Below are positions 25,258 to 63,173 of a stretch of DNA of 64,000 bases, piece by piece (within the stretch, counting starts at the first letter, position 1; every line of letters begins with the position of its first letter). The position numbers and the translations under genes are program-made. This DNA comes from Candidatus Peribacteraceae bacterium. GTDB taxonomy: Bacteria > Patescibacteriota > Gracilibacteria > Peribacterales > Peribacteraceae. The notes below the pieces were generated by a model. The model saw nothing but the letters and a program-made list of their open reading frames with translations, was not told the origin of the DNA and made no database searches. The DNA is taken from positions 151,050-215,049 of the forward strand of contig JAGOTD010000001.1 of NCBI GenBank assembly GCA_018061945.1, written 5' to 3'.

Positions 25258-28200
25258 TTACTTACACCTCAACTCCAATGCACGCATGATCATGACAATG
25301 GCGTCGGCCCTCGAGACAGGTGTATTGGGTCCGAACCTGCCTGTTAGTTTTCCTGCCGCATCTTTGTAGCCCGTCACAATGCCAAGATTGAAGGCAAGCT
25401 GAATATCGCGCACATAAGGAGATTTTGCCGTGTCAGAGAATGTCGATACTGTCAGCGAAGAATCGGGTGTATACGCAAATGCTTTGAGGATGAGATGAAT
25501 GACAAGCGCACGATTGATGGGGACGTTGGGATTGACCTGTTTAAGGAGGGGTTCTAGTTGCGCCATAGCACTGACGTACCTTGCAAGATCGAGACTGCCT
25601 GCTTCTTTGCCAGCGGCGATGAGAGCCATTTTAGAGACTTGCGCAGCGGTGACACCATCGGAGGATCCGAAGAAACCAGTGAGATTGTTTTTGGCATCTT
25701 TGTAACCAGAGACAATGTTGAGAGCTGCGGCTTTGGCGATGGCATCGGCAAAGTAGGCACCGGGAGGAACATCCGTAAACGATCGTGATGGGGCAGCAGA
25801 AGCAGTGCAGAGTTCTCCGCCATCAGGCGACGAGATCGCAGGGGTGACGGGAGTAATTGTTGGGGTAGAAGAGCTTGCTGTAGATGATGCTCTCGATGAC
25901 GTCACTTGCCCATTTTCATTTCGTGCTTTGGTACTGAAAGTCTGATTGGTGCCTATTGTCAGGTTGCCCGATGGATCTTTGGATTTAACACGGTAGTGAT
26001 AGTCGGTGTCGGGAGTGAGATTTGCGATACTGACGGTATGAGCGGTCGTGTAGACGGTATCAAGTGGACTGGAAGTTCCGTAGGACGGGTGTCTGCCGTA
26101 CTCGATTTGTGAATTCGACACTTCATCGGTCAGCCAACTAATGGTGGCGGTTTTGTCCGTTGTTGCTGCCCTGGTGGCGGAGATAAATGGTGAAGTGGTA
26201 TCAGTTGTCGTGAGCGTCAAGAACGTGTTATTGGTAGATGTTGCCGTGTTGCTCGTCGCGTCGGTAGACACAACTTGATAGTTGTAGGTAGTACCAGAGA
26301 TGAGACTGGAGAGAGTGACACTGTGACTGAGTGTAAGGGCTGGATTGTTTGGTGTTTGGTCTCCGTAGCTTGTCGTTGTGCCGTACTTGACTTGAGTGCT
26401 GGCTGGGATATTGGTAGTCCAACTGATGGTAGCGGTGTTATTGCCGATACCTGTTGCCGTGATGAGGCTTATAACGAGTGGGGCAGTATTGACTGTCGCC
26501 ACAGTCGTGAAGGTATTATTACCCGATACCGCTTCGTTGCCAGCAGCGTCTTTCGAACGGACACGGTAGTGGTAGGTTGTTCCTGCCGTGAGTGTTGAGA
26601 GCCCAACACTATGAGCGGTGAGGAGTGCGGGGTTGAGTGTCGTGGAATTTCCGTAGGCAATGGTCGTGCCGTAATCGATTTGTGTTGTCGCATTCTCATT
26701 GGTTTGCCAGCTGATAGTGGCACTCGATTCGAGTACATTCATCGCGACAATACTCGAAAGCAGTGGCGGAGTGGTGTCGAGGGCGGCAGGAGTGGTGAAT
26801 GTGTTGTCTGTGCTCGTTGCCGTATTGCTTGCACCGTCTGTGGAGATGACTTGGTAATGATACGTGGTGGAGGGACTCAGTCCCGAAAGTGCCTGTGAGT
26901 GGGACAAAATGAGCGACGAGTTGAGCGTTGTCGTATTGCCATAACTGATAGTTGTTCCGTACCTCACTTGCGTCGTTGCGGCTTCGTTGGTTGTCCACGT
27001 GATGGTTGCTCCAGTTGGCGTCGGATTTGCCGCAGTGATGAGACTGAGAGTCGGAGGAGTGGTGTCTGATGTGGGGGCAGAGGAGGATGAGGAAGCGGAG
27101 GAAGAGGGAGGCGGAGGCGGAAGACCGATGGAGGCGCCAAATTCGTAGGCACCTATATCCCACGCTGCTCCCTGCGGACGAAGGGCACCAAGAATATCTG
27201 TTCCGACAGCTGGCAAATTCGCGCCGGCATTGATACCAGCAGCCGTACTCTTAAGACGATAATCGACAGGCGCAGTGGGATTTGCAGGATCATAGGGGAT
27301 CACGAAGAGATCGCTCGGACTTCCAATAGCAATCGAATTATCTTCTTCAGGTGTGTTCGTTCGCCAAGTATTGAGCTCTGAAGCACCACGAGATCCTGCA
27401 AAAATATTGTAATCCGAATCGACGACAGATCCATATTGCACGTAGTCCCAAATATCGGTACTGATAATACCTGCTGTTCGTTGCACGAAAATATTATTGC
27501 GTATTTTTATATTCGCACTCGCTTTGGTCAGGCGTAGTGGCGGACCTACAATATTGTCCACCGTATTGTGGTAGATCTCAATATTCTTGGGAAGTTCTGC
27601 ACCATTTTCCTGGAAAAGAGTGATCCCCTTCTTCTTGTTATCATAGGCAACGTTATTGCGAATAATTGAATCTTGGACACCATCAAAATCCATAGCCGCA
27701 GATCCATTTCTGTACATAATATTATTTTCAAACAGCATATTTTTGATAATTCCATCAGTGACTTGCCCATACGGACTAGATGCACACGAAGAATAAAAAT
27801 CGCTATTAATATGAAAACCGATGTAATTATTGTCATACGCAATATTTCCCTGCACTAGATGATTATCGGCACTATTGCTAATATAGAAGCCATGCTCGGC
27901 AACGGATCGAAAGCCTTCGTTGTTAATGAGTGTTGCATATGGCGTACAGCTGGTAAAAAATCCCCACTTACTATTACGACCAGCAATACTGTTGAGAATG
28001 GTGATGTTGCGACTAAAACGCGTAGAAAATCCGGCACATGTTGCACGAGCACAATCGTAGGCAGTTAAGCCGTCTATGATAATGTATTCCGATTGATGAA
28101 TATTGACGAGCCCGCGAGTGGCTTGCGCATTCTCTTTTATAACCACATTGCTTCCGCGAGGCATTTTGGGCGTGAGAGCTTTAATGGTAATGGGATTTCC

Positions 28201-31110
28201 AGCCTCACCGTGCTTATTGTTCAGGTCAAATTCATAATAGTCACCATCGGCCATCAAGACAGTGTCTCCCGCCCGAAGACTGGAGAGAAGTGCAGCCATC
28301 TGACGACAGGCTGTTTGTAGAGTCAGGCAAGTGTTGGCATCGCTCCCTGTTGGACTGAGGTAAAATATTCGCCCTGGGCCAACGGCAGCTGCTGTGGTAA
28401 ACGTAAAATTTCCCGATACCGAGAGCCCGCCTGCACCGCGTGATTTCACGCGGTAGTGGTAAAATGTTGCGGGGGCGAGTCCCGTTAAAGAGACGCCATG
28501 TGTTGTGACCAAAGCAGGATCTACGATCGTTGCACTCCCATACGCAGTTGTCGTCCCATATTCTACCTGGGTATCAGCAGGAATGCTGGTCAGCCAGGTA
28601 ATTGTTGCGCTGTTACTCCCAATACTTTTGACAGTGACAGTATTGATAAACGGTAGACTCTGTCCAGTAGTAGTGAACGTAAAATTATTTGATGTCGCAA
28701 GTCCAGCTGCATTTTTCGATTTCACACGGTAGTGATACGTGGTGGATGGAGATAGTCCGGTAAGCACTTGGCTATGCGACGTAAGAAGACTGACGTTGAG
28801 TGTTGTCGTAATGCCGTACGCTGTCGTGAGTCCATATTCCACCTGCGTATCAGAAGCGACGTCGGTCGACCACGTAATGGTTGCATCTGTGGCGGTGATA
28901 CCTGTGCTACCAACTGCGCTCATGACAGGTACAGACGGAGCGCTGGGATGGCCGCCTACCACTGGCATCGCTCCAATATCGGTTCCATCGTGAGCGGTTC
29001 CTTTGTAGGCTGTATTCGTTGGTACAAAGCCCGCTTTCACGTAATCAATCAGGGCTTTAATAGTAAAACGAGCATCGTAGCCTGGATCATTGCGCTTCTC
29101 TAATTCTTTGAGCGCTGCATCAATCACCTGGGCATCTGTTCCTGTTTTCCCAAGGCTCCTACTCCACTTTACAATACCACGGTCGCGATCCACAAAGCCT
29201 GGGTCGCCGCCCCAGACATCATTGCTTCCAGGCACAGTGCCACTTGCATACCCCCAGTAGACAGTGCCAAGTGATGTGCCCTGAAACGCTGTCGACGTTT
29301 TTACATTCCAAAATCCATTATTGGTGGTTTGAGCAGGATCAAAGGAGTTCACACTCTTGCATCGAGCTGGATCGGGTTGGTAGATCGCACCTTGAGTTGG
29401 CGCGTTTGGCGACCATGCGAGGTTGGATTTAAGAGAAATAATCTGATTGACCGGTGCGCAGATACCCTCACCCATCTGCACCAGAATGCCGTGGTTTTTA
29501 TTATCGGTCGCTGGCACCGTATTATGTTCTACAATACGTCTTTCAAGAGGATCTCCGCGCGGGGTATTGAGCGTACACGATGGCTGACCCTTAAAAGAAA
29601 AATTATCTGCAGCATCTCCCGTTGAAACAGGGAGCACTATATTGTTGCGCACGGTAGCAATCGCTTCTGCAAGACGAGGTGCGGAACCTGACTGAATACA
29701 ATCACCCGAATCTCCAGCACTATTTTCTGGCGATTCAAAAATATTCCCTTGAATAGTGACACTATAATTTGGCACAACCACATAATGTGGATTTTGCGAT
29801 TTGGCATACAAAAGATAGGAATCATGCAAATCACCAGCCAGGCTCCACTTATCGTTGAGCCCCATTCCCATATTCAATATATTCGAAGCAGATTCCCACG
29901 AATGATTCGTCGCTTCTGGTAAACCAACTGATTGGCCGCTGGCAACATTGGCGACTTGCCATCCTTTGGATACATGCAGAGCGATTTTTTTTGATTGGCC
30001 CATCAGCACATCAAAGATTTTCAATTCTTTTGATTGGCTGGCTGGAACGTGCGCAATACTCACTCCTTTTGATTTGCCGCTAAAAACGTCATAGATTCTA
30101 AATCCTTTTGCCTCAAGCAGCGTCATTCCCTCATCAAACACGCAGCCGATAATTTCGCGTATGCCACTGGTTTTCGCTACTCCATTCGTGATAATCACAA
30201 GATTAGATTTATTTTGAGGACTATTGACGAACGTGGTATTGCGAATGCTAAAAATAGTATCGCCCTTGAATACAGCATTTTTGGTATCGATACGACCACT
30301 GGTATTAAATGTACTGTTTTGAATCTCGATATTCGCAGAATTCATGGAAAAATTAGCACCATCTCCAATACGTACAACATCTGTATAATATAGCTTATAA
30401 CGTGCATACGAAGAGTATGCAGCACTTGCAGGGGGATTGCCTGCCACCTGTAGCATGGGAGAATTGGTGGATCTAAAATAGCTGCGACTGCCTGCTGTTC
30501 CGTTAAAAGTAAGAGTGTTCGCATCTCCGGTATAGCCACGCACCAAATATTGAATGGGCGACGGCGCGCGGGAACTGTCCATTTCGATCCCGTTACCAGC
30601 TGAGACTGTTATATTCGCTCCAGTCGTCGCCGTGCCGGTTGAGATAGTACTTCCACGAATAACGAGTGGCGCATTCACAAGCAAAGAACCATACGTTGAT
30701 GTGCCATTATTACTGAGAGCAATAGCCCAAGCAGTAAGACTAGAAGAACTGATACCCACTGTGACTGGCACATCGACAGTGACAGCATGATTCACGATGA
30801 CCATGTCCCCAATATCGGGTGTATCGCCCGATAGTTTGCCCGTATTGCCATTGGCCGTTTGCGCCGCCGGACTTCCTGGATACAAACCGCTGCCAGCTGC
30901 TTTGCCCCAAACCGTTGGATCGGACCAGTTACCAGCTTTGACTGAGGTAAAGGTTTGCGTTGCTGCTTCCACTGGGGTTTTGCTATCGGTGATGGCAACA
31001 GCCATCCACAAGGCAAAGATACTCGTGGCCGCCCACGCGACTGCAATAGAGGTACGTACTTGCTGCTTTGTACCATGAGGCTTCTTGGTCTTCTTTTTTG
31101 TGTGGGTCAT
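25258..31110 (-). CDS. 1950-aa cell-surface protein: N-terminal TM anchor, G8-like motif, two right-handed beta-helix regions, about six FN3-like domains, Ser-rich linkers, C-terminal SLH domains
   Basis: - TM 'IAVAWAATSIFALWMAVAI'.
- G8-like 'KAGNWSDPTVWG...GDMVIVNHAVTVDV'.
- Pectate-lyase-like 'RIFYLSPTGSDANTC...AGDTVLMADGDYYEF' and many 'NN..' beta-helix rungs.
- Repeated 'ATITW.T...A.TQVEYGTT.AYG......L...H...L.GL.P.T.YHYRV.S'.
- SLH-like 'FTDVPPGAYFADAIAKAAALNIVSGYKD' and 'FSDTAKSPYVRDIQLAFNLGIVTGYKDAAGKLTGRFGPNTPVSRADAIVMIMRAL'. Confidence 0.88.
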   Translation of the reverse strand: MTHTKKKTKKPHGTKQQVRTSIAVAWAATSIFALWMAVAITDSKTPVEAATQTFTSVKAGNWSDPTVWGKAAGSGLYPGSPAAQTANGNTGKLSGDTPDIGDMVIVNHAVTVDVPVTVGISSSSLTAWAIALSNNGTSTYGSLLVNAPLVIRGSTISTGTATTGANITVSAGNGIEMDSSRAPSPIQYLVRGYTGDANTLTFNGTAGSRSYFRSTNSPMLQVAGNPPASAAYSSYARYKLYYTDVVRIGDGANFSMNSANIEIQNSTFNTSGRIDTKNAVFKGDTIFSIRNTTFVNSPQNKSNLVIITNGVAKTSGIREIIGCVFDEGMTLLEAKGFRIYDVFSGKSKGVSIAHVPASQSKELKIFDVLMGQSKKIALHVSKGWQVANVASGQSVGLPEATNHSWESASNILNMGMGLNDKWSLAGDLHDSYLLYAKSQNPHYVVVPNYSVTIQGNIFESPENSAGDSGDCIQSGSAPRLAEAIATVRNNIVLPVSTGDAADNFSFKGQPSCTLNTPRGDPLERRIVEHNTVPATDNKNHGILVQMGEGICAPVNQIISLKSNLAWSPNAPTQGAIYQPDPARCKSVNSFDPAQTTNNGFWNVKTSTAFQGTSLGTVYWGYASGTVPGSNDVWGGDPGFVDRDRGIVKWSRSLGKTGTDAQVIDAALKELEKRNDPGYDARFTIKALIDYVKAGFVPTNTAYKGTAHDGTDIGAMPVVGGHPSAPSVPVMSAVGSTGITATDATITWSTDVASDTQVEYGLTTAYGITTTLNVSLLTSHSQVLTGLSPSTTYHYRVKSKNAAGLATSNNFTFTTTGQSLPFINTVTVKSIGSNSATITWLTSIPADTQVEYGTTTAYGSATIVDPALVTTHGVSLTGLAPATFYHYRVKSRGAGGLSVSGNFTFTTAAAVGPGRIFYLSPTGSDANTCLTLQTACRQMAALLSSLRAGDTVLMADGDYYEFDLNNKHGEAGNPITIKALTPKMPRGSNVVIKENAQATRGLVNIHQSEYIIIDGLTAYDCARATCAGFSTRFSRNITILNSIAGRNSKWGFFTSCTPYATLINNEGFRSVAEHGFYISNSADNHLVQGNIAYDNNYIGFHINSDFYSSCASSPYGQVTDGIIKNMLFENNIMYRNGSAAMDFDGVQDSIIRNNVAYDNKKKGITLFQENGAELPKNIEIYHNTVDNIVGPPLRLTKASANIKIRNNIFVQRTAGIISTDIWDYVQYGSVVDSDYNIFAGSRGASELNTWRTNTPEEDNSIAIGSPSDLFVIPYDPANPTAPVDYRLKSTAAGINAGANLPAVGTDILGALRPQGAAWDIGAYEFGASIGLPPPPPSSSASSSSSAPTSDTTPPTLSLITAANPTPTGATITWTTNEAATTQVRYGTTISYGNTTTLNSSLILSHSQALSGLSPSTTYHYQVISTDGASNTATSTDNTFTTPAALDTTPPLLSSIVAMNVLESSATISWQTNENATTQIDYGTTIAYGNSTTLNPALLTAHSVGLSTLTAGTTYHYRVRSKDAAGNEAVSGNNTFTTVATVNTAPLVISLITATGIGNNTATISWTTNIPASTQVKYGTTTSYGDQTPNNPALTLSHSVTLSSLISGTTYNYQVVSTDATSNTATSTNNTFLTLTTTDTTSPFISATRAATTDKTATISWLTDEVSNSQIEYGRHPSYGTSSPLDTVYTTAHTVSIANLTPDTDYHYRVKSKDPSGNLTIGTNQTFSTKARNENGQVTSSRASSTASSSTPTITPVTPAISSPDGGELCTASAAPSRSFTDVPPGAYFADAIAKAAALNIVSGYKDAKNNLTGFFGSSDGVTAAQVSKMALIAAGKEAGSLDLARYVSAMAQLEPLLKQVNPNVPINRALVIHLILKAFAYTPDSSLTVSTFSDTAKSPYVRDIQLAFNLGIVTGYKDAAGKLTGRFGPNTPVSRADAIVMIMRALELRCK

Positions 31111-31186: not shown

Positions 31187-31223
31187 AGAATGTAGAACGA
31201 TAGAATTCTACGTTCTACATTCT
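31187..31223 (-). terminator. Hairpin downstream of the LamG gene (probable terminator); a related copy is at 32612-32641
   Basis: 13-bp perfect stem AGAATGTAGAACG / CGTTCTACATTCT with an 11-nt loop. T-rich sequence follows on both strands. Confidence 0.5.
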
Positions 31224-31333: not shown

Positions 31334-32041
31334 TTACGCGGTAATATCGTAGGAGTAGACAATAACTTCCAAAATCTGACCCAAAAACGGCCGCACCAAA
31401 CCGGCTGACGTGACAGTGCCGCCAACAACAGTGTTATCGGCACCCGATACGTGTCCGAACCAGGCAATGGTACCGATGTTCGAGACAGTGAGTGGATTTT
31501 CCTCTGTACCGTTGAGACTAACGTAATAATCCGTCCCATCGTAGACGACGGCGATCGAATATGTAGTGGAAACAAGGAGCGTCGTGAAACCGTTCACTGT
31601 ATGCTTGGTACCGCCGGCATTGGATTCGATGTACATGTTTCCAGCCGAGCTGATACCAATTTCAAACCAGTTGTTGGCAGTGCCGTTATCGGCGCTCGAA
31701 AACAATACTTGATCGCCACGAGTGGCAAATGCCGTCGCGCCGGTTGTAAAAACAATCAGAACCGTACCCACCGTATGACTGAGTGTGTTGGAGGATACTA
31801 GGTAGTCGTCGCTGCCATCGAACAGAATGCTTGGTACCGCTGTTTGTAGAAATGGACGACTGCCGGAAGTGCTCTGCAATCCACTGTAATTGTCGCCGTT
31901 TTGATTATGCCAATTACCGATAGGATCGTTGTTGGCGGTTGCGGCAGTTGTTCCAGCGCTGTTTTGATACACACCGGCATTCGCTCTCAGATTAATAACA
32001 GGGCTACTAGTTGCCGCTAAAATTGCTGGCTGAATGCGCAT
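31334..32041 (-). CDS. LamG/concanavalin-A-like lectin-domain protein, no signal peptide (left copy)
   Basis: 'SGSRPFLQTAVPSILFDGSDDYLVS...NNWFEIGISSAGNMYIESNAGG...YSIAVVYDGTDYYVSLNG' is the typical LamG_3 pattern. It is about 70% identical by eye to the 33863..34570 product. Confidence 0.75.
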   Translation of the reverse strand: MRIQPAILAATSSPVINLRANAGVYQNSAGTTAATANNDPIGNWHNQNGDNYSGLQSTSGSRPFLQTAVPSILFDGSDDYLVSSNTLSHTVGTVLIVFTTGATAFATRGDQVLFSSADNGTANNWFEIGISSAGNMYIESNAGGTKHTVNGFTTLLVSTTYSIAVVYDGTDYYVSLNGTEENPLTVSNIGTIAWFGHVSGADNTVVGGTVTSAGLVRPFLGQILEVIVYSYDITA

Positions 32042-32050
32042 GTGGGGATT

Positions 32051-32431
32051 TTATGAAGTAACCGTACTAGCACCTTTCACCACCCGCTGCTTGGAATTGG
32101 TCTCGAGAATACAGGCAACGTCACCACTATCGAGCGTCACGTTGGTCGAACCCGGGCCGTCGATAGTGACCGTACTGCCAGAATCGTTGACAATCTCTAC
32201 CTCAAAACCGTTACCCAGCGTCCCCACTGCAGGGAGAGAGAACGTGAGCGACGCAGTCGCCACAAAACGCTTGCCGCTGTCGGCACTTGTGAAAGTGTAG
32301 CCGGAGCTTTTGGTCACTTCCACAACTGCACCAATGTTTTCACCGGTCGATGCATGACCGACTTGCAGGAATGTATTGAGAACATCTCCCCATGTACCAC
32401 TGTCACCGCCGGATGTTGGAAGTCTAGCCAT
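32051..32431 (-). CDS. 126-aa protein with a phage-tail-fibre-type N-terminal motif (left copy)
   Basis: 'MARLPTSGGDSGTWGDVLNTFLQVGHASTG' follows the '..P..GD..WG..LN.FL.V.H' motif seen at the N-termini of tail-fibre/beta-helix proteins. It is about 85% identical to the 33475..33855 product. No signal peptide. Confidence 0.75.
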   Translation of the reverse strand: MARLPTSGGDSGTWGDVLNTFLQVGHASTGENIGAVVEVTKSSGYTFTSADSGKRFVATASLTFSLPAVGTLGNGFEVEIVNDSGSTVTIDGPGSTNVTLDSGDVACILETNSKQRVVKGASTVTS

Positions 32432-33855: not shown

Positions 33856-33862
33856 TTCTCCT

Positions 33863-55500: not shown

Positions 55501-58500
55501 GTACAGCTGCGGAGCCATGGCACCCGTACCGTTTTTCATCGCACCTGTACCCATCATTATGGTGCCGTAGCGGTTATCAGTCTTTATGAGCGGCTGTGAA
55601 CCTGTCCCTGTAACAACCAAGCTCTTGCCCGACATAGTACCGCGAATCATGGCATTGCCGTTGATAATCAAGTTGGCACCAGACAGAGTTCCCTTTGTCG
55701 TAATGTTGCCTTTGGCCACAATCGAACCAGAAGTGGTGATGTCGCCAGAGATGTTGAGGGACGAGCCGGAGATAGTAGCGCGGACAGTGAGGGCGCCTGT
55801 CATGGTGCCGCCAGCAGTTCTTAGGTAACGACTGTCACCGATAGTGACGACGTTGCCAGAGCCAAAGGTGCCCGAGCCTCCTGTTAAATCTGTACCACAG
55901 GTAACGTTGCCGCTTCCATCTGTTTTGAGGGTACAGTTACCAAAGTTCTGGAACATCAATGCACCTCTGATGATCATGCCACCCGAACCAGAGATGAGGC
56001 TGGAGATCTTAAGTTGTGAGCCAGAGATGGTGCCAACGACGTCGAGCTGTGTACCAGCGGACACAGTTGTTTTACCAATCGAGAGGACTCCATTTTGAAT
56101 GTAGCTGTTGCCGTTCATGATGGTGAGTAGGCCACCAGAGAGGGTGCCGCGTGTTGAGAGATTGTTTTGGAAGAGACCTGTGCCCTTGGTAATGATGGAA
56201 CCAGAAGTGGTGATGTTGTTAGAAACATTCAAGCTGTAACCCGACATGGTGCCACGGATCAAAAGCTTGGTGCCAGACAGAGAAGCAGCATAGAAATTGG
56301 CATTGGTCTGAAGTGCATTGCCAGTTGGACGACGCAATGAGACATCGTACGTGGTACCCGTACCGAACATAATGTGTGCAGTGGAAGAGCTTCCGCGAGC
56401 GTTGATACGCAATGCACCGGTGTTTGCGGATACTATGGTAAACGCATTGGAGCCCGTGCTGGTATTCAAAATAGTTGACTGGCCCTGCGCAAAGAAACCG
56501 CGACCGAAATATGATCCTCCCATTACAACCAACTCTCCACCCACAGTGGCATTGCCACGTACTGAGAGAGTCCCCGCTTCCAGCCCACCAGTTTCCATTT
56601 GCTGGATATACGCACCACCGATATCGTACACATTCAAAACGTTTTTGCTTCCATTGATGACATACAGATAGCGGCCTTGAACGGCAATATCGTTAATAGT
56701 ACCGGCTGAGGCGAACGTGTTAACCACTTTTGCAACTCGAGGGTTACTCACATCAATCGCGGTAATAACGTTATTTGAGTCGGACACATACAGATATCTG
56801 CCCTGAATCGCCATTCTGCGTCTGCCGTTATTGGCTGCCAATGTCAAAGTCTTGACTGCAAGCGGTCTTGCCGGATTACTAATATCGACAATCTGTACCT
56901 GATTTGACGCACCGCCACCCAAATAGGCATACCGACCCTGTACAAGAACTGATGTGACATAGGTGATAGTAGTTGATGTACCCATACCGCCTACTTTCGT
57001 TAAATTCGTCGGGTTCGATATATCGTATATCGAAAAAGCAGGCGAGCAGCATCCGCCGTTTGCAACGTACAAGTATTTACCTTGAATAGCAGCGTAGCCA
57101 AGGGAGCTCGATCCTGTTTGCGTAGCAGATCCTACCTGGATAGGACTGATCGGATTACTGATGTCATAGGAATAGACACGGCCGTTCGTCGGGTCGGAAC
57201 CGTACAAATAGCGACCCTGTATTTCTGTCGCAACTCCGGAATTAAAACTGATGCCTACCGGCGTAACAGGATTGGATACGTCATAGACTATAACGTTGCT
57301 GTTGGCCGCGTACTCAATATAAACATACCGTCCTCCAACGACAATGTTTGTCAGCGGGTGATTTGGCGTATGAACCGCAGTGCTACTAAGCTTCACAGGA
57401 GCTTGCGGTATGGAAAGATCGAAAATATCAAGCGTCGAACTGGCAGATGAATTGTTAATTACATAGGCAAATTTGCCCTGCACCCTCATGGTAAACGGCG
57501 TAACCGTAGTCGCACCGGAGCCGATATACGAAGATGGGAATGCCGTACCGACATACATGTTTGGCGTCATAGCGCCTGTGGAAGTTCCGGCATTGGAAAG
57601 ATACCCCGAACCGAATGACACAGTGCCTGTTGTCAAATTTGTCTGGATGAGCGGAGAATGTTGTGCACCCGTACCAGAGATGTACAACCCCTGACCCGAC
57701 ATGGTGCCGCGCACATTCAGAAGTGGTGTCGATGTTTCAGTATGCGTGTTGCCGTTTTGTATACTGACTGCACCAGTAAGCGTGCCACCAGACAGTCTGA
57801 GGTAGCGTGCATCGGCAGCAGTCATGGTGAAGGCAGTTCCACAGCTTGTCACTCCGTTACCATCGGTGATGATCATGGCACAGCTCTTAAGGCTGGAGAC
57901 AGTGAGAGTCTGACCCGAGAGGGTTCCACGGAAGGTGGCGTTACCATTGATGAGAATACCACCAGAGCCAGAGATGAGGCTGGAGATCTTAAGTTGTGAA
58001 CCAGAGATGGTGCCAACGACATCGAGCTGTGTACCAGCGGACACAGTTGTTTTACCAATCGAGAGGACTCCATTTTGAATGTAGCTGTTGCCGTTCATGA
58101 TGGTGAGCAGGCCACCAGAGAGGGTGCCGCGTGTTGAGAGATTGTTTTGGAAGAGACCTGTGCCCTTGGTAATGATGGAACCAGAAGTGGTGATGTTGTT
58201 AGAAACATTCAAGCTGTAACCCGACATTGTGCCACGGATCAAAAGCTTGGTGCCAGACAGAGAAGCAGCGTAGAAATTGGCATTGGTCTGAAGTGCATTG
58301 CCAGTTGGACGACGCAATGAGACATCGTACGTGGTACCCGTACCGAACATAATGTGTGCAGCCGAACTTGTGCCACGAGCAGCTATACGTAGTGCGCCTG
58401 AATAGGTAGAAATAAGTGTCAGAGCAGTTGCACCTGTAGATGTAGACGCGATGGCCGATGGACCGTTAGCATTAAATCCATTACCAAAGCTTGCACCACC

Positions 58501-61500
58501 AGCAACGTCCAAGTTTCCGTAGACAGCTGCATTGCCACGCACAGCTAATGTGCCTGCTTCAATGCCACCAACTTCCAACTGCTGGATATACGCACCGCCA
58601 AGGTCGTACGTATTAATGCTGCTAGATGTCTGATTCACGACGTATGCATAACGACCCTGGACAAACACAGAATTTGCCAGTGAGCCAGTTGGCATCGTTC
58701 CAACAAGTGTAGGTACAGACGGATTGGAAACATCAACAACAATGACCGTATTATTAGCCCCTCCCGCGATATACGCATAACGACCCTGGACATACACTGA
58801 CAGTGTTGGATTTCCAGAAGCAATCGTGAGCGAACTTCGTAATGTGAGTGCTGTTGGACTGGAAAGATCCGTAATATTGAAACTATTTGTATACGCCGTA
58901 TACGCATAGCGACCTTGAACGAATAATGCTCCACCAACACGAGTTGCAGACTGCCCAACATACGCTGGTGCGGCTGGGTTGCTTACATCCACAGAGAAAA
59001 GGTAGTTCGTGCTTGCATTAGATCCAGTAACGTAAACATAGTTACCGAGAACAGATATGTTCGTGACAGCCGAAAGATTCGCATTCGTTGTGGTCCCAAC
59101 CATAATTGGATTGGCTGGATTACTAATATCAAAGACACCAACTCCACCTGACGATGCAGACCCTCCGTACAAATATCGTCCTTGTATTGCCAACGCTCCA
59201 CCAGCAACTGTGCTAGCTAAGTACTTCACAAGGCGTGGCGACGCAGGATTCGAAATATCCACAATCCACAATCCATGACCAGCACCACCCTTCGTAACAA
59301 AGTATGCATACCGACCCTGAACCACGACGTGCGTTGCAATATAGTTTGTACCTATGGAATACGAACCAACTAATTGAGGCGTTGCTGTACTTACATCGAA
59401 TATCTCCAATTTATTCGTTGAGAAATTACCACCTACCACGTAAGCATAACGACCCTGCACATACACATCGAAAGGAGTCGCATTTGTTGCTCCGCTACCA
59501 ACCCACGTTGTCGGAACACGACCTGCAACGTACAGCTGCGGAGCCATGGCACCAGTACCGTTTTTCATGGCGCCAGTTCCCATCATTATGGTGCCGTAGC
59601 GGTTGTCAGTTTTTATGAGCGGCTGGGAACCTGTCCCTGTAACAACCAAGCTCTTGCCCGACATAGTACCGCGAATCATGGCATTGCCGTTGATAATCAA
59701 GTTGGCGCCAGACAGAGTTCCCTTCGTCGTGATATTTCCTTTAGTCACAATCGAACCAGAAGTGGTGATGTTGTTAGAGATGTTGAGCGATGAGCCGGAG
59801 ATAGCGGCGCGGACGGTGAGAGCACCTGTGACAGTACCACCCGAGAGACGGAGGTAGCGTGCGTCAGCAGCAGTCATGGTGAAGGCAGTTCCACAGCTTG
59901 TCACTCCGTTACCATCGGTGATGATCATGGCACAGCTCTTAAGGCTGGAGACAGTGAGAGTCTGACCCGAGAGGGTTCCACGGAAGGTGGAGTTACCATT
60001 GATGAGAATGCCACCAGAGCCAGAGATGAGGCCGGAGATCTTGAGGGCAGAGCCAGAGATGGTGCCGACGACATCGAGCTTAGTTCCAGCGGAGACGGTT
60101 GTTTTGCCGATAGAGAGAGAACCATTTTGAATGTAGCTGTTGCCGTTCATAATGGTGAGCAGACCACCAGAGAGGGTGCCGCGAGTGGAGAGGTTGTTTT
60201 GGAAGAGACCTGTGCCCTTGGCAATAATGGAACCAGAAGTGGTGATGTTGTTGGAGATGTTGAGCGACGAACCAGAGATGGCGGCGCGGACGGTGAGGGC
60301 GCCTGTCATGGTGCCGCCAGCAGTTCTTAGGTAACGACTGTCACCGATAGTGATGACGTTGCCAGAGCCAAAGGTGCCCGAGCCTCCTCCTGTTAAGTCT
60401 GTGCCACAGGTAACGTTGCCGTTTCCATCTGTCTTAAGGGTACAGTTACCAAAGTTCTGGAACATCAATGCACCTCTTATGATCATGCCACCCGAGCCAG
60501 AGATGAGACTAGAGATTTTAAGTTGTGAGCCAGAGATAGTACCGACGACGTCGAGTTTGGTGCCAGCTGCGACAGAGGTTTTACCGATGGCGATGTTTCC
60601 CAGAAGGTAGGAATCTCCATTCATAATTCTAAGCGCTGCGCCAGAGAGTGATGTACGAGCATTGATCGATCCATTGGTGGTGATGGATCCAGAGTTCGAG
60701 ATATTGCCAGAAATATTGGCGTTCCCATTAAGGATAAGGCCAGCGCCAGAGAAGGTAGATTTTGTGGTAATGGAGTTCTTGGCGATAATGGCGCCAGAAG
60801 TGGTGATGTTGTTAGAGATATTGAGCGACGAACCAGAGATGGCGGCGCGGACGGTGAGGGCGCCTGTCATGGTACCGCCAGCAGTTCTGACGTAACGACT
60901 GTCACCGATAGTAACAACTTGTCCAGAACCGAAACCAGCGGGAGTTGTAGACCAAGTCAGGTTTCCAGCTCCATCAGTCTTGAGGTAACCACTTGGTGTT
61001 TGCGAACCGGCAAACGTATATGTTTGACCGTTAATTGTGAGAGTAGAATTGAATCGAACGTCTTTCGTAAAGACAGTAGTGCCCGAGAAACCAGCAGTCC
61101 CCATAATGCGCAGCGCTGCACCCGAGAGTGTGCCCTTTACGGTTGTATCATTTTTCAGAAGTGATGGACCAACAACTGTAAGCGTGCCAGACGACGACAA
61201 TCCTTTTTCTGCATGAATGTACGCACCCGATGCCGTCTGAAGAATATTGAGTCCGAGATAGCCAGATTTAAGGTTGATGACCAGACCACCCGTCATCGTA
61301 TCGCCGGTCTGCTTCACATAATGCAAATCTGCATATAATTGCGACAGACCCGTCACAGCAACGGATGACCACATAAGTCCGCCAGTTGGCGTAACAGTCA
61401 GCACCTGTCCATTGGAACCAATACCGAAATCTGTAAACGTTCCAGCAGCATTTCCTAGAAGCAACGATCCAGAACCGATGCTACTAAGACCCGTTCCGCC

Positions 61501-62343
61501 TCTGCTAACTGCCAGAATGCCAGTCACTTCACTACTGAGATTGATCGGCTGGCCAGCAAAATCGCGCTGGCTTCCACCAGATGTAGAACCAGATGTCTGA
61601 TTACCACCGCCACCTCCGCCTCCATAATGACGCTCGACGGGAGATCCATCCGCGGGCTGCACATACGGTATGCGGCCGCTGCTTATCGGATGCAGCGAAG
61701 AATATGCCTCATCAATATCGATCCACACCAATTTTCCTTTCTGATAGCTGAGCACTTGTCCGTCGGTTGCCGGACCCATCGCCATAAGAAGGACGCGCAG
61801 CGAACGAGCCAAAAGGCCGGACGTATCGACTGTCGCTAGGGCGGAAGGAATAGGAGGTTGCTGTCCTTCTTGAACCGGACCATACGCTGGAGCTGCGGCG
61901 TGATTATTCGCCAAGCGTGCCAAGCGACGCAGATACGCTCTTTCGTTTGTAGCTGAGTAATAGGTTTCGTGCGTCACTGCTTCTTTGCCATTGGATGTGA
62001 AAATATTTTCTTGCGTAAACAGTGGAGCGGAAACAGTTGAGCCGTTGCCTGCTGGCACGACTGAAGTCACCGTTCGTGTCATATGGGCGACACCGGTAAA
62101 CGGACGGATCGCAGTATTGATAATCAATCCACTATCTGGCTTCTCGCCGATGCCAAGTGAGAGACGATTGATGATCGCACCCTTTGGAATAATTTCGAGA
62201 GCCGGCACATTCAAGAATAAGAGACCACCCTCCCCGGCCAAGTTGGACGCCTGCGTGATGGCAATCGCCAGGAGCGACAGCAGCAGTATGCCTGCAGCTA
62301 GCAGGAGCGAGGAAAGCCGGTGAGGACGGTTTATATATCTCAC
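49528..62343 (-). CDS. 4271-aa giant surface protein: N-terminal TM anchor, tail-fibre-like repeats, five 7-bladed LVIVD-type beta-propellers, Peptidase_G2/IMC-like domain, possible H-type-lectin-like domain, acidic poly-Ser tail
   Basis: - Uninterrupted 12.8-kb ORF with a GTG start overlapping the upstream stop (GTGA at 62340-62343).
- TM 'LSSLLLAAGILLLSLLAIAI'.
- Tail-fibre motifs 'VSRGGTGLSS', 'KQTGDTMTGGLVI' and repeated 'RTAGGTMTGALTVRA'.
- 35 blades of the form 'VQGRYAYV....L.I.D(V/I)SNP..P'.
- Five 'GGAYIQQLE' junctions.
- 'SGADYAEWF...PGEVVCID...NLMGIISTHPAYIGN'.
- Tail '...SSSSSESSESSSQSSTSSSESSSSSSESNN'. Confidence 0.9.
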   Translation of the reverse strand: MRYINRPHRLSSLLLAAGILLLSLLAIAITQASNLAGEGGLLFLNVPALEIIPKGAIINRLSLGIGEKPDSGLIINTAIRPFTGVAHMTRTVTSVVPAGNGSTVSAPLFTQENIFTSNGKEAVTHETYYSATNERAYLRRLARLANNHAAAPAYGPVQEGQQPPIPSALATVDTSGLLARSLRVLLMAMGPATDGQVLSYQKGKLVWIDIDEAYSSLHPISSGRIPYVQPADGSPVERHYGGGGGGGNQTSGSTSGGSQRDFAGQPINLSSEVTGILAVSRGGTGLSSIGSGSLLLGNAAGTFTDFGIGSNGQVLTVTPTGGLMWSSVAVTGLSQLYADLHYVKQTGDTMTGGLVINLKSGYLGLNILQTASGAYIHAEKGLSSSGTLTVVGPSLLKNDTTVKGTLSGAALRIMGTAGFSGTTVFTKDVRFNSTLTINGQTYTFAGSQTPSGYLKTDGAGNLTWSTTPAGFGSGQVVTIGDSRYVRTAGGTMTGALTVRAAISGSSLNISNNITTSGAIIAKNSITTKSTFSGAGLILNGNANISGNISNSGSITTNGSINARTSLSGAALRIMNGDSYLLGNIAIGKTSVAAGTKLDVVGTISGSQLKISSLISGSGGMIIRGALMFQNFGNCTLKTDGNGNVTCGTDLTGGGSGTFGSGNVITIGDSRYLRTAGGTMTGALTVRAAISGSSLNISNNITTSGSIIAKGTGLFQNNLSTRGTLSGGLLTIMNGNSYIQNGSLSIGKTTVSAGTKLDVVGTISGSALKISGLISGSGGILINGNSTFRGTLSGQTLTVSSLKSCAMIITDGNGVTSCGTAFTMTAADARYLRLSGGTVTGALTVRAAISGSSLNISNNITTSGSIVTKGNITTKGTLSGANLIINGNAMIRGTMSGKSLVVTGTGSQPLIKTDNRYGTIMMGTGAMKNGTGAMAPQLYVAGRVPTTWVGSGATNATPFDVYVQGRYAYVVGGNFSTNKLEIFDVSTATPQLVGSYSIGTNYIATHVVVQGRYAYFVTKGGAGHGLWIVDISNPASPRLVKYLASTVAGGALAIQGRYLYGGSASSGGVGVFDISNPANPIMVGTTTNANLSAVTNISVLGNYVYVTGSNASTNYLFSVDVSNPAAPAYVGQSATRVGGALFVQGRYAYTAYTNSFNITDLSSPTALTLRSSLTIASGNPTLSVYVQGRYAYIAGGANNTVIVVDVSNPSVPTLVGTMPTGSLANSVFVQGRYAYVVNQTSSSINTYDLGGAYIQQLEVGGIEAGTLAVRGNAAVYGNLDVAGGASFGNGFNANGPSAIASTSTGATALTLISTYSGALRIAARGTSSAAHIMFGTGTTYDVSLRRPTGNALQTNANFYAASLSGTKLLIRGTMSGYSLNVSNNITTSGSIITKGTGLFQNNLSTRGTLSGGLLTIMNGNSYIQNGVLSIGKTTVSAGTQLDVVGTISGSQLKISSLISGSGGILINGNATFRGTLSGQTLTVSSLKSCAMIITDGNGVTSCGTAFTMTAADARYLRLSGGTLTGAVSIQNGNTHTETSTPLLNVRGTMSGQGLYISGTGAQHSPLIQTNLTTGTVSFGSGYLSNAGTSTGAMTPNMYVGTAFPSSYIGSGATTVTPFTMRVQGKFAYVINNSSASSTLDIFDLSIPQAPVKLSSTAVHTPNHPLTNIVVGGRYVYIEYAANSNVIVYDVSNPVTPVGISFNSGVATEIQGRYLYGSDPTNGRVYSYDISNPISPIQVGSATQTGSSSLGYAAIQGKYLYVANGGCCSPAFSIYDISNPTNLTKVGGMGTSTTITYVTSVLVQGRYAYLGGGASNQVQIVDISNPARPLAVKTLTLAANNGRRRMAIQGRYLYVSDSNNVITAIDVSNPRVAKVVNTFASAGTINDIAVQGRYLYVINGSKNVLNVYDIGGAYIQQMETGGLEAGTLSVRGNATVGGELVVMGGSYFGRGFFAQGQSTILNTSTGSNAFTIVSANTGALRINARGSSSTAHIMFGTGTTYDVSLRRPTGNALQTNANFYAASLSGTKLLIRGTMSGYSLNVSNNITTSGSIITKGTGLFQNNLSTRGTLSGGLLTIMNGNSYIQNGVLSIGKTTVSAGTQLDVVGTISGSQLKISSLISGSGGMIIRGALMFQNFGNCTLKTDGSGNVTCGTDLTGGSGTFGSGNVVTIGDSRYLRTAGGTMTGALTVRATISGSSLNISGDITTSGSIVAKGNITTKGTLSGANLIINGNAMIRGTMSGKSLVVTGTGSQPLIKTDNRYGTIMMGTGAMKNGTGAMAPQLYVAGRVPTTYVGSGATQANPSAITVQGRFAYVVNYSGNSFQIFDISNKQPQLLSTTTSGISNPYGILVQGRYAYVQNYTGASTIRIYDISNPATPIFMSAVGAGGTQSSIAIQGRYLYSQTFSGGIFRVTDISNPSNPYVVGSITYGNYGGGVTVSGRYAYVSNSFGTAATYVVDISNPANPFTAATISSGFRYTTLKVIGKYLYMGSSGGLGMKIYDISNPLSAVLVSTISNNITSFDVSGRYLYATNGSNGLLTYDISNPRVPTLLGTTSVGSLQQGISVQGRYAYTIDYNNSSINVFDLGGAYIQQLEVGSLETTDLAVTNNARIFGNLDVRGAASFGQGFNANGLSAISSTSTGGTTLTLISTYSGALRIAARGTSSAAHIMFGTGTTYDVSLRRSTGLVLMTNANFYANSFSGTSLTITGTGSRPLLRTNTPTNTILIGSGAISLAGTSTGAMTPNLYTGINFPSTYVGSGATSITPYVIKVQGRLAYVANYNQAAGAAPKLDIYDVSNPQSPIQLSSTSFGTVNQAIANLLVSGHYVYLSNFGNSRTYVFDVSNPTSPTLISNPLAIADEIQGRYMFGVAPSSSTLTAYDISNPSNIVTVGTASFANSSQTSYMAAQGKYLYVTNGTCCSQAMSVFDISNPSNMVKVGTVSTSISANTSALLAQGRYVYLASGISSTVQIIDVSTPSNPTLVRTLSVGSGNNGRRRLSLQGRFLYVTDLSGVITVVDVSNPRVAKAVGTIPYVGTINDVSVQGRYLYALNGSKNAINTFDIGGTYIQQLEAGGIETSQLSVRGNAAIFGELNVAGGGSFGRGIYVQGESSFINTSTGSNAFTIISTYSGALRIAARGTTNTAHIMFGTGTTYDVSLRRPTGNALQTNANFYAAALSGTQLSVRGTMSGQGLYISGTGSQKTPLISTNLATGTVQFGSGFLQRGSTGAIVPQLFLPGKSITRPVGSGSYATTATMALAVQGRYAYVSNSSNQLVVRDLTNPETPTTVGTSTAASAVMQSIVVQGRYAYVGLASSLGMNIYDISNPSAPRFVSTLPISGAGVSQVAVQGRYAFIGTGTSYSIYVADISDPSAPVIVSVYANPTAQFATPAMARLTVQGRYLYVAASGGNLYIFDTSNPRNLVLTSNINTQNRITEVQVQGRYAYVSGYNSNGLQIFDISNPSSVGAAVGRIVPAATMSRMVLQGRYLYISTSSSNILVYDVSNPRLPFQVGTLTAPGYAVMAMQGRYLYSTYPAAALAYFNVFDLGGAYIQQLEVGALEAATLSVRTNATIFGDLNVQGEGVFGHGVTAHGASTIMNTSTGAYALSITSRSGALVSLGSGGSVVPTAALYIETKNSDNIEAIRIRSRETTATQDMFKIITDVSSTDNTVFRISGSGAVYADGVYNSSGADYAEWFKSKDADLMPGEVVCIDPLDDNTVKRCMRDADTNLMGIISTHPAYIGNHITGADGVMPPGYKLVGLIGQVPAKVTLENGPIHPGDSLTSASKPGFARRASAGESTVGVALEAFNGSSGPEAVINVLISRRNQSLTVEGVEQKVLDSIAAMKIDDQVNQMVGDTIRNFNLDDNVTTAVRDQLQALDLTAQVNHLIDQRLSSSGASISTDGITNLLQTRYGLSTHSGATVVTADMFLSGALRATSVTFTSLRVESGATIFGPLHAAGGLSVSSGATIQGGLRIDGPITTGSGFSLGSLTLSGAQVNIGSLLDRNSLKVIGGVTINGLAVFLGDVEVKGEFKLSSKQVGYAVIPQTGTSVTVLFASGFIARPIVTASPDYPILFAVSKATATGFTIRIASPAPQAITFSWIAIPTDAPRTSSGTTMTGSFIAFPVDSLGVPVSTNAIWNACVRNQTILDIDGQPFSCSRYHSDAQWDHPDLRITFTWNGTSDPKILILPVGYQAVVQEQGNALTVSSSSSSEQSISSSVSEESSSSSSESSSESSVSSSASSSEESSSSSSESSESSSQSSTSSSESSSSSSESNN

Positions 62344-63173
62344 TGGGCGGAAGGAGAAGATGTATCGTTTACCTGCGTACTCAACACCGATCGACCTGTA
62401 TCGTTCACCTGTGTCCGAATATCATGCGCAAAAATCGCCAACTGGCTTGAGGCCAGTAGCCAACCGATTGCAACGAGCGACAGGGCGATGCCGAGCTTAT
62501 GGAGCACCGAGGTAACTGCATGGAACAAATGCGAAGCCTGTTTCTCTGAAGGGGAAACAGATGTCTGCACTTTTTTCAGGGCAGCGCAGACATCTAATTC
62601 CGGAACTGATGTAATGGGCAACATGCTGTCAGCAAGTACCGATCGTCTATCGGCTACCTGCATGAATGGCTGCACATTGTCATTCGATTGAGGTGCTGAT
62701 TGCCCTTGCACCAATGCGCGATCGAGTTCTTGTACCGACATCCAGATACCCTGCTCGCGCGCCAGAATTTGTAGCAGCTGCTTTTTTTCGAGGTACGGAT
62801 ACTGGCGATGATAGTGCGTAACCACTTGAACCAAGTGATGCGACACCGACACTTTTTTTATCTGCAGCGAACGATGAGATCTCTCTTCCAAGCTAAATGG
62901 ATTACTTGGATCAAAACGCACTAACCAACGCTGCAACGTCGTGCGTGCAATCGCGAAGTAATGACACGTTTTGCTTATAGATCGACCATGATCGACGAAG
63001 TACACCAGCCACTCCAAGCGTTGCTTTGCCTCCGGAGACAGACGCAGCTCTTCCTGCCTCTTTTGAAGGCTTTGTAACTGCTCGCGCTGGAGAGAAGAAA
63101 ATCGCATTGAGTGTATATATGTGTTGGTATATGCGTGTCGCGCTTCATCGCAACTATCAAATTTTCTAGTCAT
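62340..63173 (-). CDS. Transposase-derived (IS481/IS3-type N-terminal) HTH protein lacking a catalytic domain, with a C-terminal TM helix; translationally coupled to the giant gene
   Basis: 'LSPEAKQRLEWLVYFVDHGRSISKTCHYFAIARTTLQRWLVRFDPSNPFSLEERSHRS...YPYLEKKQLLQILAREQGIWMSVQELDRAL' matches the double-HTH N-terminal region of rve-type transposases. No DDE/rve region follows. Instead there is a linker and the TM helix 'IALSLVAIGWLLASSQLAIFA'. The start is uncertain; an alternative ATG at 63107 gives 'MRFSSLQ..'. Confidence 0.65.
   Translation of the reverse strand: MTRKFDSCDEARHAYTNTYIHSMRFSSLQREQLQSLQKRQEELRLSPEAKQRLEWLVYFVDHGRSISKTCHYFAIARTTLQRWLVRFDPSNPFSLEERSHRSLQIKKVSVSHHLVQVVTHYHRQYPYLEKKQLLQILAREQGIWMSVQELDRALVQGQSAPQSNDNVQPFMQVADRRSVLADSMLPITSVPELDVCAALKKVQTSVSPSEKQASHLFHAVTSVLHKLGIALSLVAIGWLLASSQLAIFAHDIRTQVNDTGRSVLSTQVNDTSSPSAQ

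Follow-up and report, generated by a model that had tools for sequence, protein, structure and literature searches.

The question raised by positions 25258-63173 of the window, that is, of the whole 64,000-nucleotide (nt) stretch of the Candidatus Peribacteraceae contig JAGOTD010000001.1 that was analysed, is whether the envelope-related genes crowded there form one machine, and how those of their products that resemble phage fibres but carry no signal could come to act at a cell surface. A preliminary description, made from the sequence, had read the 38 kb as a single island encoding wall-anchored enzymes, phage-derived fibre parts and a regulator, possibly an attachment apparatus. We consider it best explained, with a probability of roughly one half for the explanation as a whole, as a mosaic, fast-changing cell-envelope locus and not as one fixed machine. 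Two mobile cassettes derived from phage tail fibres would have inserted into it independently and in mirrored orientation, each with a 126-amino-acid (aa) protein, here called the adaptor, and a cargo protein encoded behind it; in most other lineages this pair belongs to a six-gene module, putatively for surface display, together with genes of twin-arginine translocation (Tat) and proteins carrying a repeated Tyr-Gly (YG) motif. The segment comprises 13 open reading frames (ORFs) at a coding density of ~96%, so that the consecutive and dense arrangement reported before stands, but not the count of 12 or the density of ~93%. The part that carries the cassettes is laid out as follows (position in the window, strand, feature):

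25258..31110, minus strand: 1950-aa wall protein (by Pfam matches, a hydrophobic N-terminus and homology to 729-aa and 803-aa cassette proteins)
31187..31223, no strand: first copy of a palindromic element resembling a terminator (37 nt), downstream of the minus-strand LamG gene
31334..32041, minus strand: LamG (concanavalin-like) cargo, 235 aa, without signal (Pfam Laminin_G_3, E=1.9e-6)
32051..32431, minus strand: adaptor copy 1, 126 aa, with a predicted phage tail-fibre N-terminal domain fold
32612..32641, no strand: palindromic element, copy 2, downstream of the small membrane gene
32675..33160, minus strand: 161-aa single-pass membrane protein with its own promoter-like site (ATG at 33160)
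33475..33855, plus strand: adaptor copy 2, 126 aa
33863..34570, plus strand: LamG cargo, 235 aa (Pfam Laminin_G_3, E=3e-7)
34612..37023, plus strand: third-gene protein, 803 aa, without signal (by AlphaFold2 model, Foldseek and homology to a 729-aa protein)

The two cassettes had been described before as mirrored operons of phage-like proteins without signals, and the small membrane protein between them had been placed in the same group. The former was borne out: the two adaptor copies are 85% and the two LamG proteins 65% identical in amino acid sequence, and an N-terminal hydrophobic segment was found in none of the five cassette proteins. As to the latter, the closest genome match to the adaptor gene (87%) belongs to a metagenome-assembled genome (MAG) of Candidatus Peregrinibacteria, whose FtsH falls into the same 90% cluster as FtsH of the window (83% nt identity) and is informative on the history of the locus. 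The FtsH locus of this relative consists of an SLH paralog (849 aa), the small membrane gene (73% nt identity to 32752-33153 of the window), FtsH, an extra gene of 773 aa, an S66 peptidase, PurB, a TPR protein and a tRNA, and it is devoid of both cassettes and of the 1950-aa gene. The third of three tandem SLH paralogs in the window (877 aa) is the one closest to the single paralog of the relative, which adjoins that genome's small membrane gene and FtsH. Judged by this gene order, SLH paralog, small membrane gene and FtsH are ancestral neighbours, and their adjacency in the relative indicates that both cassettes of the window are insertions. These flank the small gene, the plus-strand cassette occupying 33475-37023 and the minus-strand cassette, together with the 1950-aa gene, 32431-25258. 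The relative has a cassette of its own, a trio encoding the 126-aa adaptor, a 235-aa LamG protein and a 729-aa third protein, which is flanked by DUF1697 and flavodoxin genes and has no SLH gene near it. The 161-aa membrane protein, for which no Pfam or PHROG family was found, was also considered as a TatA-like protein or a cassette component; this was rejected for lack of such a match and because the gene is the ancestral neighbour of FtsH.

It is quite improbable, in view of this comparison, that all ~13 genes constitute one co-evolving, co-regulated surface attachment apparatus, as had been proposed. Such an apparatus would fit the contiguity and dense packing of the genes, all of which are envelope-related, the recurrence of a G8-like motif with its domain and of one FN3 subtype in several of them, and a codon usage that is more uniform inside the segment (correlation of relative synonymous codon usage, r 0.71-0.82) than between the segment and the left flank (0.61-0.76). 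It does not fit a relative whose corresponding locus is without the cassettes and the 1950-aa gene and whose cassette resides at an unrelated locus, which speaks against evolution of the genes as a block. One of the outcomes that the preliminary description itself had named as evidence against its reading, unlinked homologs in a related genome, was thus found for the block as a whole. When the flanks of 19 cassette loci were searched, neither the gene for a giant LVIVD protein nor that for a helix-turn-helix (HTH) protein, both at the right end of the segment, had a homolog there, and the three SLH paralogs had none of full length (shared FN3 and SLH domains alone matched). In addition, a promoter-like box thought to be common to the gene groups is confined to the tandem paralogs, and the small membrane gene is the ancestral neighbour of FtsH. 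Comparison of base composition with the left part of the window, which carries housekeeping genes (ligA, ftsH, purB, a PilT-like ATPase and tRNA-Leu), was uninformative regarding a foreign origin: GC content is 0.50 in both the segment and the flank, and codon usage differs modestly.

Mirrored cassettes could also be the arms of an invertible, phase-variable segment that exchanges receptor-binding genes in the manner of a shufflon, comparable to the G segment of phage Mu or the C segment of P1. Inverted arms of 627 nt and 157 nt do flank a 1-kb spacer, and the genes are fibre-like. However, the arms are just 71-85% identical at the nt level, the spacer gene is the ancestral resident, start and promoter-like sites of its own are present in each operon and face outward from the spacer, and the window ORFs scanned included neither a recombinase nor a reverse transcriptase. 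Moreover, two independent contigs (L001, which is identical, and L022) are colinear with the window. On these grounds inversion was rejected as very improbable. A diversity-generating retroelement was rejected as well, since the ORFs scanned included no reverse transcriptase. Two observations were made on the same neighbourhood. A palindromic element of ~30-37 nt (AGAATGTAG...TACATTCT) brackets the minus-strand adaptor and LamG genes at 31187-31223 and 32612-32641; it has two sites in the window, where 0 were expected, and occurs in 0/49 other loci, and the pair could be terminators or a scar of cassette insertion. The extra 773-aa gene of the relative (L044, positions 5504-7825), which lies in the interval between FtsH and the S66 peptidase, has no Pfam match and is missing from the window, is a further sign of a neighbourhood in flux.

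According to its structural model, the adaptor has the fold of a tail-fibre N-terminal domain. The AlphaFold2 (AF2) model attained a pLDDT of 81.5 (>90 for roughly residues 40-120), and its comparison with BFVD yielded 235 viral matches at E<=1e-3, mostly tail fibres and including the Mtd N-terminal domain and the lambda Stf repeat. The top matches in the PDB were the capsid spike of phage Pa223 and the tail fibre of phage Mu; 9ny6_C (E=2.7e-4) and 6o38 (E=1e-3) were among the PDB matches, and the match to the PHROG tail-fibre family phrog_4209 was weak (E=0.003). The protein is also exceptionally conserved. Among 188 homologs, the best 120 are 64-100% identical and nearly all 125-127 aa long; identity across Patescibacteria, Planctomycetes and Alphaproteobacteria amounts to 63-87%, and 39 columns of an alignment of 26 sequences are invariant. 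Genome matches came from Peregrinibacteria, Parcubacteria, Paceibacterota, Adlerbacteria, Saccharibacteria, Planctomycetaceae, Pirellulales and Rhodoplanes, and a homolog from Bradyrhizobium was found separately. An exhaustive profile search detected the domain, or its N-terminal segment, within larger proteins in 3,553 cluster representatives, the tight adaptor family being one 50% cluster. In phages, relatives were found in 1 of 50,697 genomes and in 1 IMG/VR contig, at or near the N-terminus of a fibre protein.

The genes around the adaptor in other genomes point to the context in which it may function. Pfam domains of 129 neighbouring ORFs from 18 loci included TatC in 14 and PG_binding_1 in 11. 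By BLAST and jackhmmer, the tatA-tatC pair was mapped in 20 loci plus 3 further independent contexts, and both genes are present in 22 of 27 informative distinct loci (best TatC E=1.5e-43). Adjoining tatC is the gene for a wall anchor. Its Sec-type signal is followed, directly from the predicted cleavage site on, by the motif A-x-(T)-YG-x-G-x-YG-x-G-x-YG (seen in at least 19 wall-anchored proteins), then by FN3, Big_7 or Big_3_5 repeats and finally by PG_binding_1 or, in loci L008 and L023, by SLH. Between tatC and the anchor gene, 23 distinct loci encode a minipeptide of 49-65 aa (~55) that combines [ST]-R-[RKGA]-x-F-L with a hydrophobic and a basic stretch and, at the C-terminus a few residues from the stop, (S)YG(N/S)xxYGG; R..FL and YG...YGG are present in >=80% of them. 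The YG wall anchors themselves were rejected as Tat passengers, their signals looking Sec-like without a consistent RR; the Tat motif is instead on the minipeptides. In all-against-all clustering, the only recurring families were adaptor, wall anchor, TatC, TatA and minipeptide. The module in most other lineages consists, as judged from sequence, of six genes, namely those for TatA, TatC, the minipeptide, the YG wall anchor, the adaptor and a variable glycan-active cargo.

The identities of adaptor and TatC co-vary between loci (r=0.56), the adaptor being the more conserved (68% versus 39%), and TatC clades mix Alphaproteobacteria with Patescibacteria, a sign that the module is transferred as a unit. 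Its flanks are housekeeping genes (ATP synthase, Mur ligase, aminoacyl-tRNA synthetases). Since the linkage between cassette and wall-anchored FN3/Ig protein, be it with PG_binding_1 or SLH, recurs in three phyla, the idea that phage receptor-binding hardware was recruited to the envelope gains support. This core of the preliminary description, whose observations were largely right, is thereby partly supported; the single 38-kb apparatus is not, and the mechanism of recruitment can be proposed only conditionally. TatA and TatC occur in Paceibacteria and Saccharimonadia (PMC9166423). Some loci merit separate mention. The closest Tat-containing relative of the window adaptor (79%) is in L023 (contig_29396, 144 kb), the locus with an SLH-anchored YG protein, and is surrounded by three group II intron reverse transcriptases and two insertion sequence elements. 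A complete module is present in the cultured alphaproteobacterium Bradyrhizobium sediminis (L005; CP076136, 878851-899318), where its neighbours are Shedu (SduA_C), ORC/Cdc6-like, SMC-like and MmeI restriction genes and DUF932, that is, a defence or mobile-island context; this bacterium would be a tractable host for experiments.

The cargo gene follows the adaptor closely. In about 20 distinct loci the next ORF begins 0-17 nt after the adaptor stop and its product starts with M-x(1-3)-[RH]-[SAP]-G-[IV]-[IL]-[AG]-[AG]. In the window, the minus-strand LamG gene begins 9 nt past the adaptor stop, and the N-terminal peptides are MRIQPAILAATSS (minus-strand LamG) and MRAFSAVVASA (plus-strand LamG); the latter presumes the likely start at Met7 of a 241-aa ORF, as called on the identical contig L001. 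As a Tat or type IV prepilin signal the peptide was rejected: it is too short and without an h-region, and in L007 the catalytic domain begins by about residue 16. What follows it varies: SASA esterase domains in four loci, GDSL/SGNH in five or six, and in the others GH5, polysaccharide lyase, LamG, beta-helix or no recognised domain. This repertoire and its evolutionary pattern are those of phage tailspikes. The third-gene protein of the plus-strand cassette (803 aa) consists of the G8-like motif, a beta-solenoid (~residues 173-665) and a C-terminal helical domain. It is 31% identical to the 729-aa protein of the relative and has almost no other homologs; with its AF2 model (pLDDT 56), Foldseek weakly matched at the top the tailspikes of P22 (E=8.6e-4) and HK620, PL6 lyases and AlgE. 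Catalytic residues were found neither here nor in the beta-helix of the 1950-aa protein. It is probably a tailspike-like, polysaccharide-active enzyme, as far as this model allows. Among cultured phages, a related domain was found in Microcystis phage Mel-JY34 alone (L021, 29498-31134). The product of the ORF behind its tail-fibre gene starts MAGLRSGAELL, which resembles the cargo peptide and hints that the mode of docking between adaptor and cargo may have been inherited from phages.

With a tail-fibre fold in the adaptor and classic tailspike enzymes as cargo, the cassettes might simply be phage remnants or satellites: spare receptor-binding proteins for virions, tailocins or gene-transfer-agent-like particles encoded elsewhere, or decaying prophage genes, with TatAC and the peptidoglycan-binding proteins stemming from a phage lysis module. 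The PG_binding_1 proteins indeed match 'endolysin' PHROGs through that domain, an unnamed PHROG matches 12 neighbours (the function-unknown phrog_36238, 12 of the 129, probably TatC genes), in one phage and one IMG/VR contig the domain is at the N-terminus of a fibre and the next ORF starts in a similar way, and some loci are in mobile or defence-island contexts. Yet the families listed for the 129 neighbours (the first 25 of 85 Pfam and the first 25 of 75 PHROGs families) include no recurring one for capsid, portal, terminase or tail, a single PHROGs 'virion structural protein' match being seen in them, and no virion, packaging, lysis or integration family was found among the window ORFs scanned. 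Adaptor and TatC were each found in 1 of the 50,697 phage genomes, the TatC record being an unannotated 7.5-kb fragment of 'Bacteriophage sp.', and both matches are weak. Across three phyla the ORFs have stayed intact and strongly constrained, and the peptidoglycan-binding proteins have Sec signals, YG motifs and FN3/Ig stalks but no catalytic domain. Furthermore, the minipeptides carry Tat motifs, and in large contigs of the candidate phyla radiation (CPR) the flanks are housekeeping genes. A prophage was rejected on the basis of the missing virion genes and the phage searches, and a phage remnant in the broader sense is considered unlikely. Derivation of the signal-less genes from phage fibres, not from an adjacent prophage, was upheld.

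Esterases, lyases and lectins tethered to a wall need not be directed outward. They could act on the glycans or peptidoglycan of the cell that makes them, for envelope remodelling or for defence against phages, for example by removing O-acetyl groups or destroying receptors. Consistent with this, enzymes of the receptor-destroying type (SGNH, SASA, lyase) are tethered to the own wall by PG_binding_1 or SLH, Tat export in diderm hosts would place them in the periplasm near the peptidoglycan, and the Bradyrhizobium module is embedded among defence genes. Diverse cargo of fast turnover beside an ultra-conserved adaptor is, however, the pattern of host-range or ligand diversification, and the cargo in the window is LamG, lectin-like and without a recognised enzyme domain. 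Such a self-directed role is considered improbable.

If the adaptor and its cargo are displayed outward by a Tat/YG module, as we prefer to assume, the following sequence of events would connect the six genes. Phage fibres fold and oligomerise in the cytoplasm, and export of an unfolded chain by Sec is unsuited to them, whereas Tat moves folded proteins. Adaptor and cargo would likewise fold and oligomerise in the cytoplasm, the adaptor carrying the cargo by the N-terminal peptide of the latter and attaching to the Tat minipeptide at its YG motif. This folded complex would then cross the dedicated TatAC translocase as a hitchhiker on the minipeptide, and would be held at the membrane or handed over to the wall-anchored YG stalk. 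Displayed in this way, the enzyme or lectin could bind or cut polysaccharide on a host cell, a neighbour or a particle. The hitchhiker is proposed because the minipeptide is the sole protein of the module with a Tat motif and shares the YG motif of the anchor, and because the adaptor and cargo encoded next to it have no signal. Three binding partners would also explain the extreme conservation of the adaptor. More tentatively, we entertain the possibility that the module is an undescribed six-gene display system, spread horizontally among Patescibacteria, Planctomycetes and Alphaproteobacteria, with Tat-exported, exchangeable fibre-derived heads on a YG stalk, of which the window would represent a Peregrinibacteria derivative with heads also fused to SLH.

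Several points weigh against this interpretation. Both proposed contacts of the adaptor, with the YG motif and with the N-terminal peptide of the cargo, are purely inferred. In diderm hosts (Planctomycetes, Alphaproteobacteria), Tat export would reach the periplasm only. The second position of the minipeptide motif is seldom canonical (RR in 3 of 23, RK in 14, RG in 4 and RA in 2), an obvious AxA cleavage site is missing, and the minipeptides could be the sole Tat passengers, with no hitchhiker. Confidence in the model of the 803-aa protein is low (pLDDT 56), as is the strength of its fold matches. The parallel in Mel-JY34 leaves, weakly, room for a role of the adaptor-cargo pair in virions. 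Genes for TatA and TatC (by jackhmmer), YG minipeptide and YG anchor are absent from the 64-kb window, as they are within 10 kb of the trio in the relative. A description of the module was not found in the literature searched, a check that is incomplete, so that an earlier description may exist. As regards the missing genes, the Tat and YG parts may be elsewhere in this genome, the window being a reduced or split version of the module. A Paceibacterota MAG (SO_2016_GW1_52) has two adaptor loci on two contigs (L009 and L012), one with adaptor, SASA cargo and TatAC, the other with YG minipeptide, YG-PG_binding anchor, adaptor and cargo. Parts of the module can hence be split between loci.

The proposed display can be compared with systems already known. 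In phages, an adaptor with exchangeable tailspikes is known from SP6 and K1-5 (gp37), and branched tailspikes from G7C (gp66/gp63.1) and CBA120. The cassettes share with these a small conserved protein of the fibre-N-terminal type, behind which come exchangeable enzymes that attach by short N-terminal segments, the types of enzyme (SGNH/SASA esterases, beta-helix depolymerases, lyases, lectin domains), and a carrier-binding part that is highly conserved while the distal part turns over fast. They differ in that the pair is chromosomal, beside housekeeping genes and without virion genes, almost absent from phage genomes, and linked to TatAC, a Tat minipeptide and a wall anchor. A minimal TatAC dedicated to one substrate is encoded next to phoD in Bacillus subtilis (TatAd-TatCd), and co-export of signal-less partners as hitchhikers is established for HybO/HybC and DmsA/DmsB of E. 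coli. Here, too, TatA and TatC without TatB are encoded beside a putative passenger with S/T-R-R/K-x-F-L and alongside signal-less oligomers that presumably fold in the cytoplasm. In contrast, the passenger bearing the signal is of ~55 aa, ends in a YG motif and mostly has Lys in place of the second Arg, the presumed hitchhiker is a phage-fibre-like complex and not a cofactor enzyme, and the window has no Tat genes.

PblA and PblB of Streptococcus mitis are prophage tail-fibre proteins that serve as cell-surface adhesins; they are released by holin and lysin and bind choline of the wall. As would be the case here according to the gene content, signal-less phage fibre proteins attach to the wall of their producer and bind another surface; unlike here, they are encoded in an intact prophage, while a translocase of its own and a wall anchor made of protein belong to the typical module. 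A further parallel is the cellulosome, where a wall-anchored stalk (SLH or peptidoglycan-binding) also presents a docking element for exchangeable carbohydrate-active enzymes. In the module, the docking parts would be a YG peptide and a phage-fibre domain, and the enzymes are without Sec signals; by Pfam, no cohesin or dockerin domain was found in the window proteins, the cargo proteins or the 25 listed of 85 neighbour families.

The outcome is sobering as far as the window is concerned, its 38-kb 'island' being a patchwork where a conserved machine had been proposed. The dedicated Tat translocase, on the other hand, would be a natural route for signal-less phage-derived proteins, which the earlier hypothesis did not have. 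If true, the proposal would amount to a new principle, in which a cell displays receptor-binding hardware domesticated from phages and can exchange the enzyme heads while the adaptor is conserved, and could explain why Tat is retained in many metabolically minimal CPR bacteria. It would also provide a handle on how ultra-small CPR bacteria attach to hosts and particles or digest their coats. Given short, well-defined motifs (Tat motif, YG motif, cargo peptide) and an ultra-conserved adaptor, binding, export and mutagenesis experiments are easy to design.

To the right of the cassettes, the segment comprises wall and membrane proteins:

37111..39684, minus strand: SLH paralog 1, 857 aa
39692..39720, minus strand: promoter-like box TTTAAA-17-TGgTATAAT upstream of paralog 1 (further copies at 42480-42508 and 45291-45319)
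39842..42451, minus strand: SLH paralog 2, 869 aa
42630..45263, minus strand: SLH paralog 3, 877 aa
45368..49282, minus strand: 1304-aa wall protein (by Pfam and alignment to the 729-aa protein of the relative)
49528..62343, minus strand: 4,271-aa membrane-anchored LVIVD protein
62340..63173, minus strand: 277-aa HTH protein with a C-terminal transmembrane helix (weak HTH_28/IS630-type match)

Five SLH-anchored proteins with FN3, beta-helix or helical-repeat domains had been predicted. SLH (PF00395) was above the Pfam threshold in the proteins of 1950, 857, 869, 877 and 1304 aa (43.6-55.6 bits; cut-off 20.8), all five of which have a hydrophobic N-terminus, and FN3 and beta-helix domains were likewise found by Pfam; of a helical-repeat domain there are only weak (alpha/alpha)6 hints, in the paralogs. 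These three tandem proteins each consist of a transmembrane anchor, FN3, a conserved W/Y-rich domain of ~300 aa, a Ser-rich linker and SLH. Their SLH ends are 81-99% identical at the nt level, compared with 40-70% for the central parts, in agreement with the concerted evolution of the anchors proposed in the preliminary description. The promoter box (TTTAAAnAACGGnnTTTTTnTGGTATAAT) has three matches, where 0 were expected, each upstream of one of the paralogs, and is thus part of the tandem duplication unit and a by-product of duplication. Homology searches with the paralogs and the 803-aa protein returned very few relatives, and a PDB sequence search with the same proteins nothing informative beyond the SLH and FN3 domains of the paralogs themselves.

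The sharing of a G8-like motif between several genes was confirmed: GNWSxxxTW, together with a homologous domain predicted at low confidence to have a beta-helix-like fold, is common to the 803-, 1304- and 1950-aa proteins. The 1950-aa protein has an N-terminal membrane or signal segment, the G8-like motif with the beta-helix-like domain, six FN3 domains (Pur_ac_phosph_N type), Beta_helix (PF13229, E=1.7e-11) with a NosD match, and SLH. Its gene takes the place of the third gene in the minus-strand cassette, and its homology to the 729-aa and 803-aa cassette proteins extends over residues 149-714. In the 1304-aa protein the order is Sec signal, full-length homolog of the 729-aa protein, FN3, Big_7, Big_3_5, SLH and SH3. 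Here, residues 23-696, directly behind the signal peptide (...SHAAAITSAQTGNWSS), align to residues 2-696 of the 729-aa protein of the relative, which carries no signal and starts MAAITSAQTGNWSS. Over 374 aa, the C-terminal half shares 38% identity with the YG-SLH anchor of locus L023. The same beta-helix head is thus found free and fused to an SLH anchor, which supports a surface role of the free form. The free form is the 803-aa protein; in the 1304- and 1950-aa proteins the family is fused directly to Sec signal, stalk and SLH. By domain content the five SLH proteins, and the giant LVIVD protein with them, are ordinary members of S-layer-associated enzymes and giant surface proteins, respectively; they differ from these in that two of the SLH proteins carry the beta-helix family of a signal-less cassette protein and in that the giant adds a phage-type Peptidase_G2-like segment, below threshold. 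Every FN3 repeat of the 1950-aa (residues 759-1671) and 1304-aa (741) proteins has an internal Y-G-x-T-x-x-Y-G, the resemblance of which to the terminal YG motif of anchors and minipeptides is probably just a feature of the FN3 subtype.

The giant protein is composed of an N-terminal hydrophobic anchor, fibre-like Gly/Thr repeats, five propeller blocks and a poly-Ser/Glu tail. Membrane anchor and propellers agree with what had been described, LVIVD (PF08309) matching at E=3.1e-127 in 15 stretches and the five blocks being visible in both protein and DNA repeats. The phage-type autoprocessing domain is a weaker proposition: Peptidase_G2 (PF11962, autocleavage as an intramolecular chaperone) matched below threshold (E=7e-5; 22.8 bits, cut-off 25) over 77 of 228 profile positions near residues 3660-3737, close to the C-terminus. 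The 277-aa protein had been called a transposase-derived membrane HTH protein. The transmembrane helix was found, but the matches to HTH_28 (21.5 bits, cut-off 25) and HTH_Tnp_IS630 (19.0 bits, cut-off 21.3) are both below threshold and no DDE domain was detected by Pfam, so that nothing beyond an HTH protein with a transmembrane helix at the C-terminus is indicated. Its stop overlaps the start of the giant gene by 4 nt (62340-62343), which suggests that the two genes are translationally coupled. Unrelated to the cassettes, positions 11094-15194 of the window encode a 7TM_transglut protein followed by a fused ATPgrasp_ST and MATCAP (tyrosine carboxypeptidase-like) protein, which is an unusual pairing.

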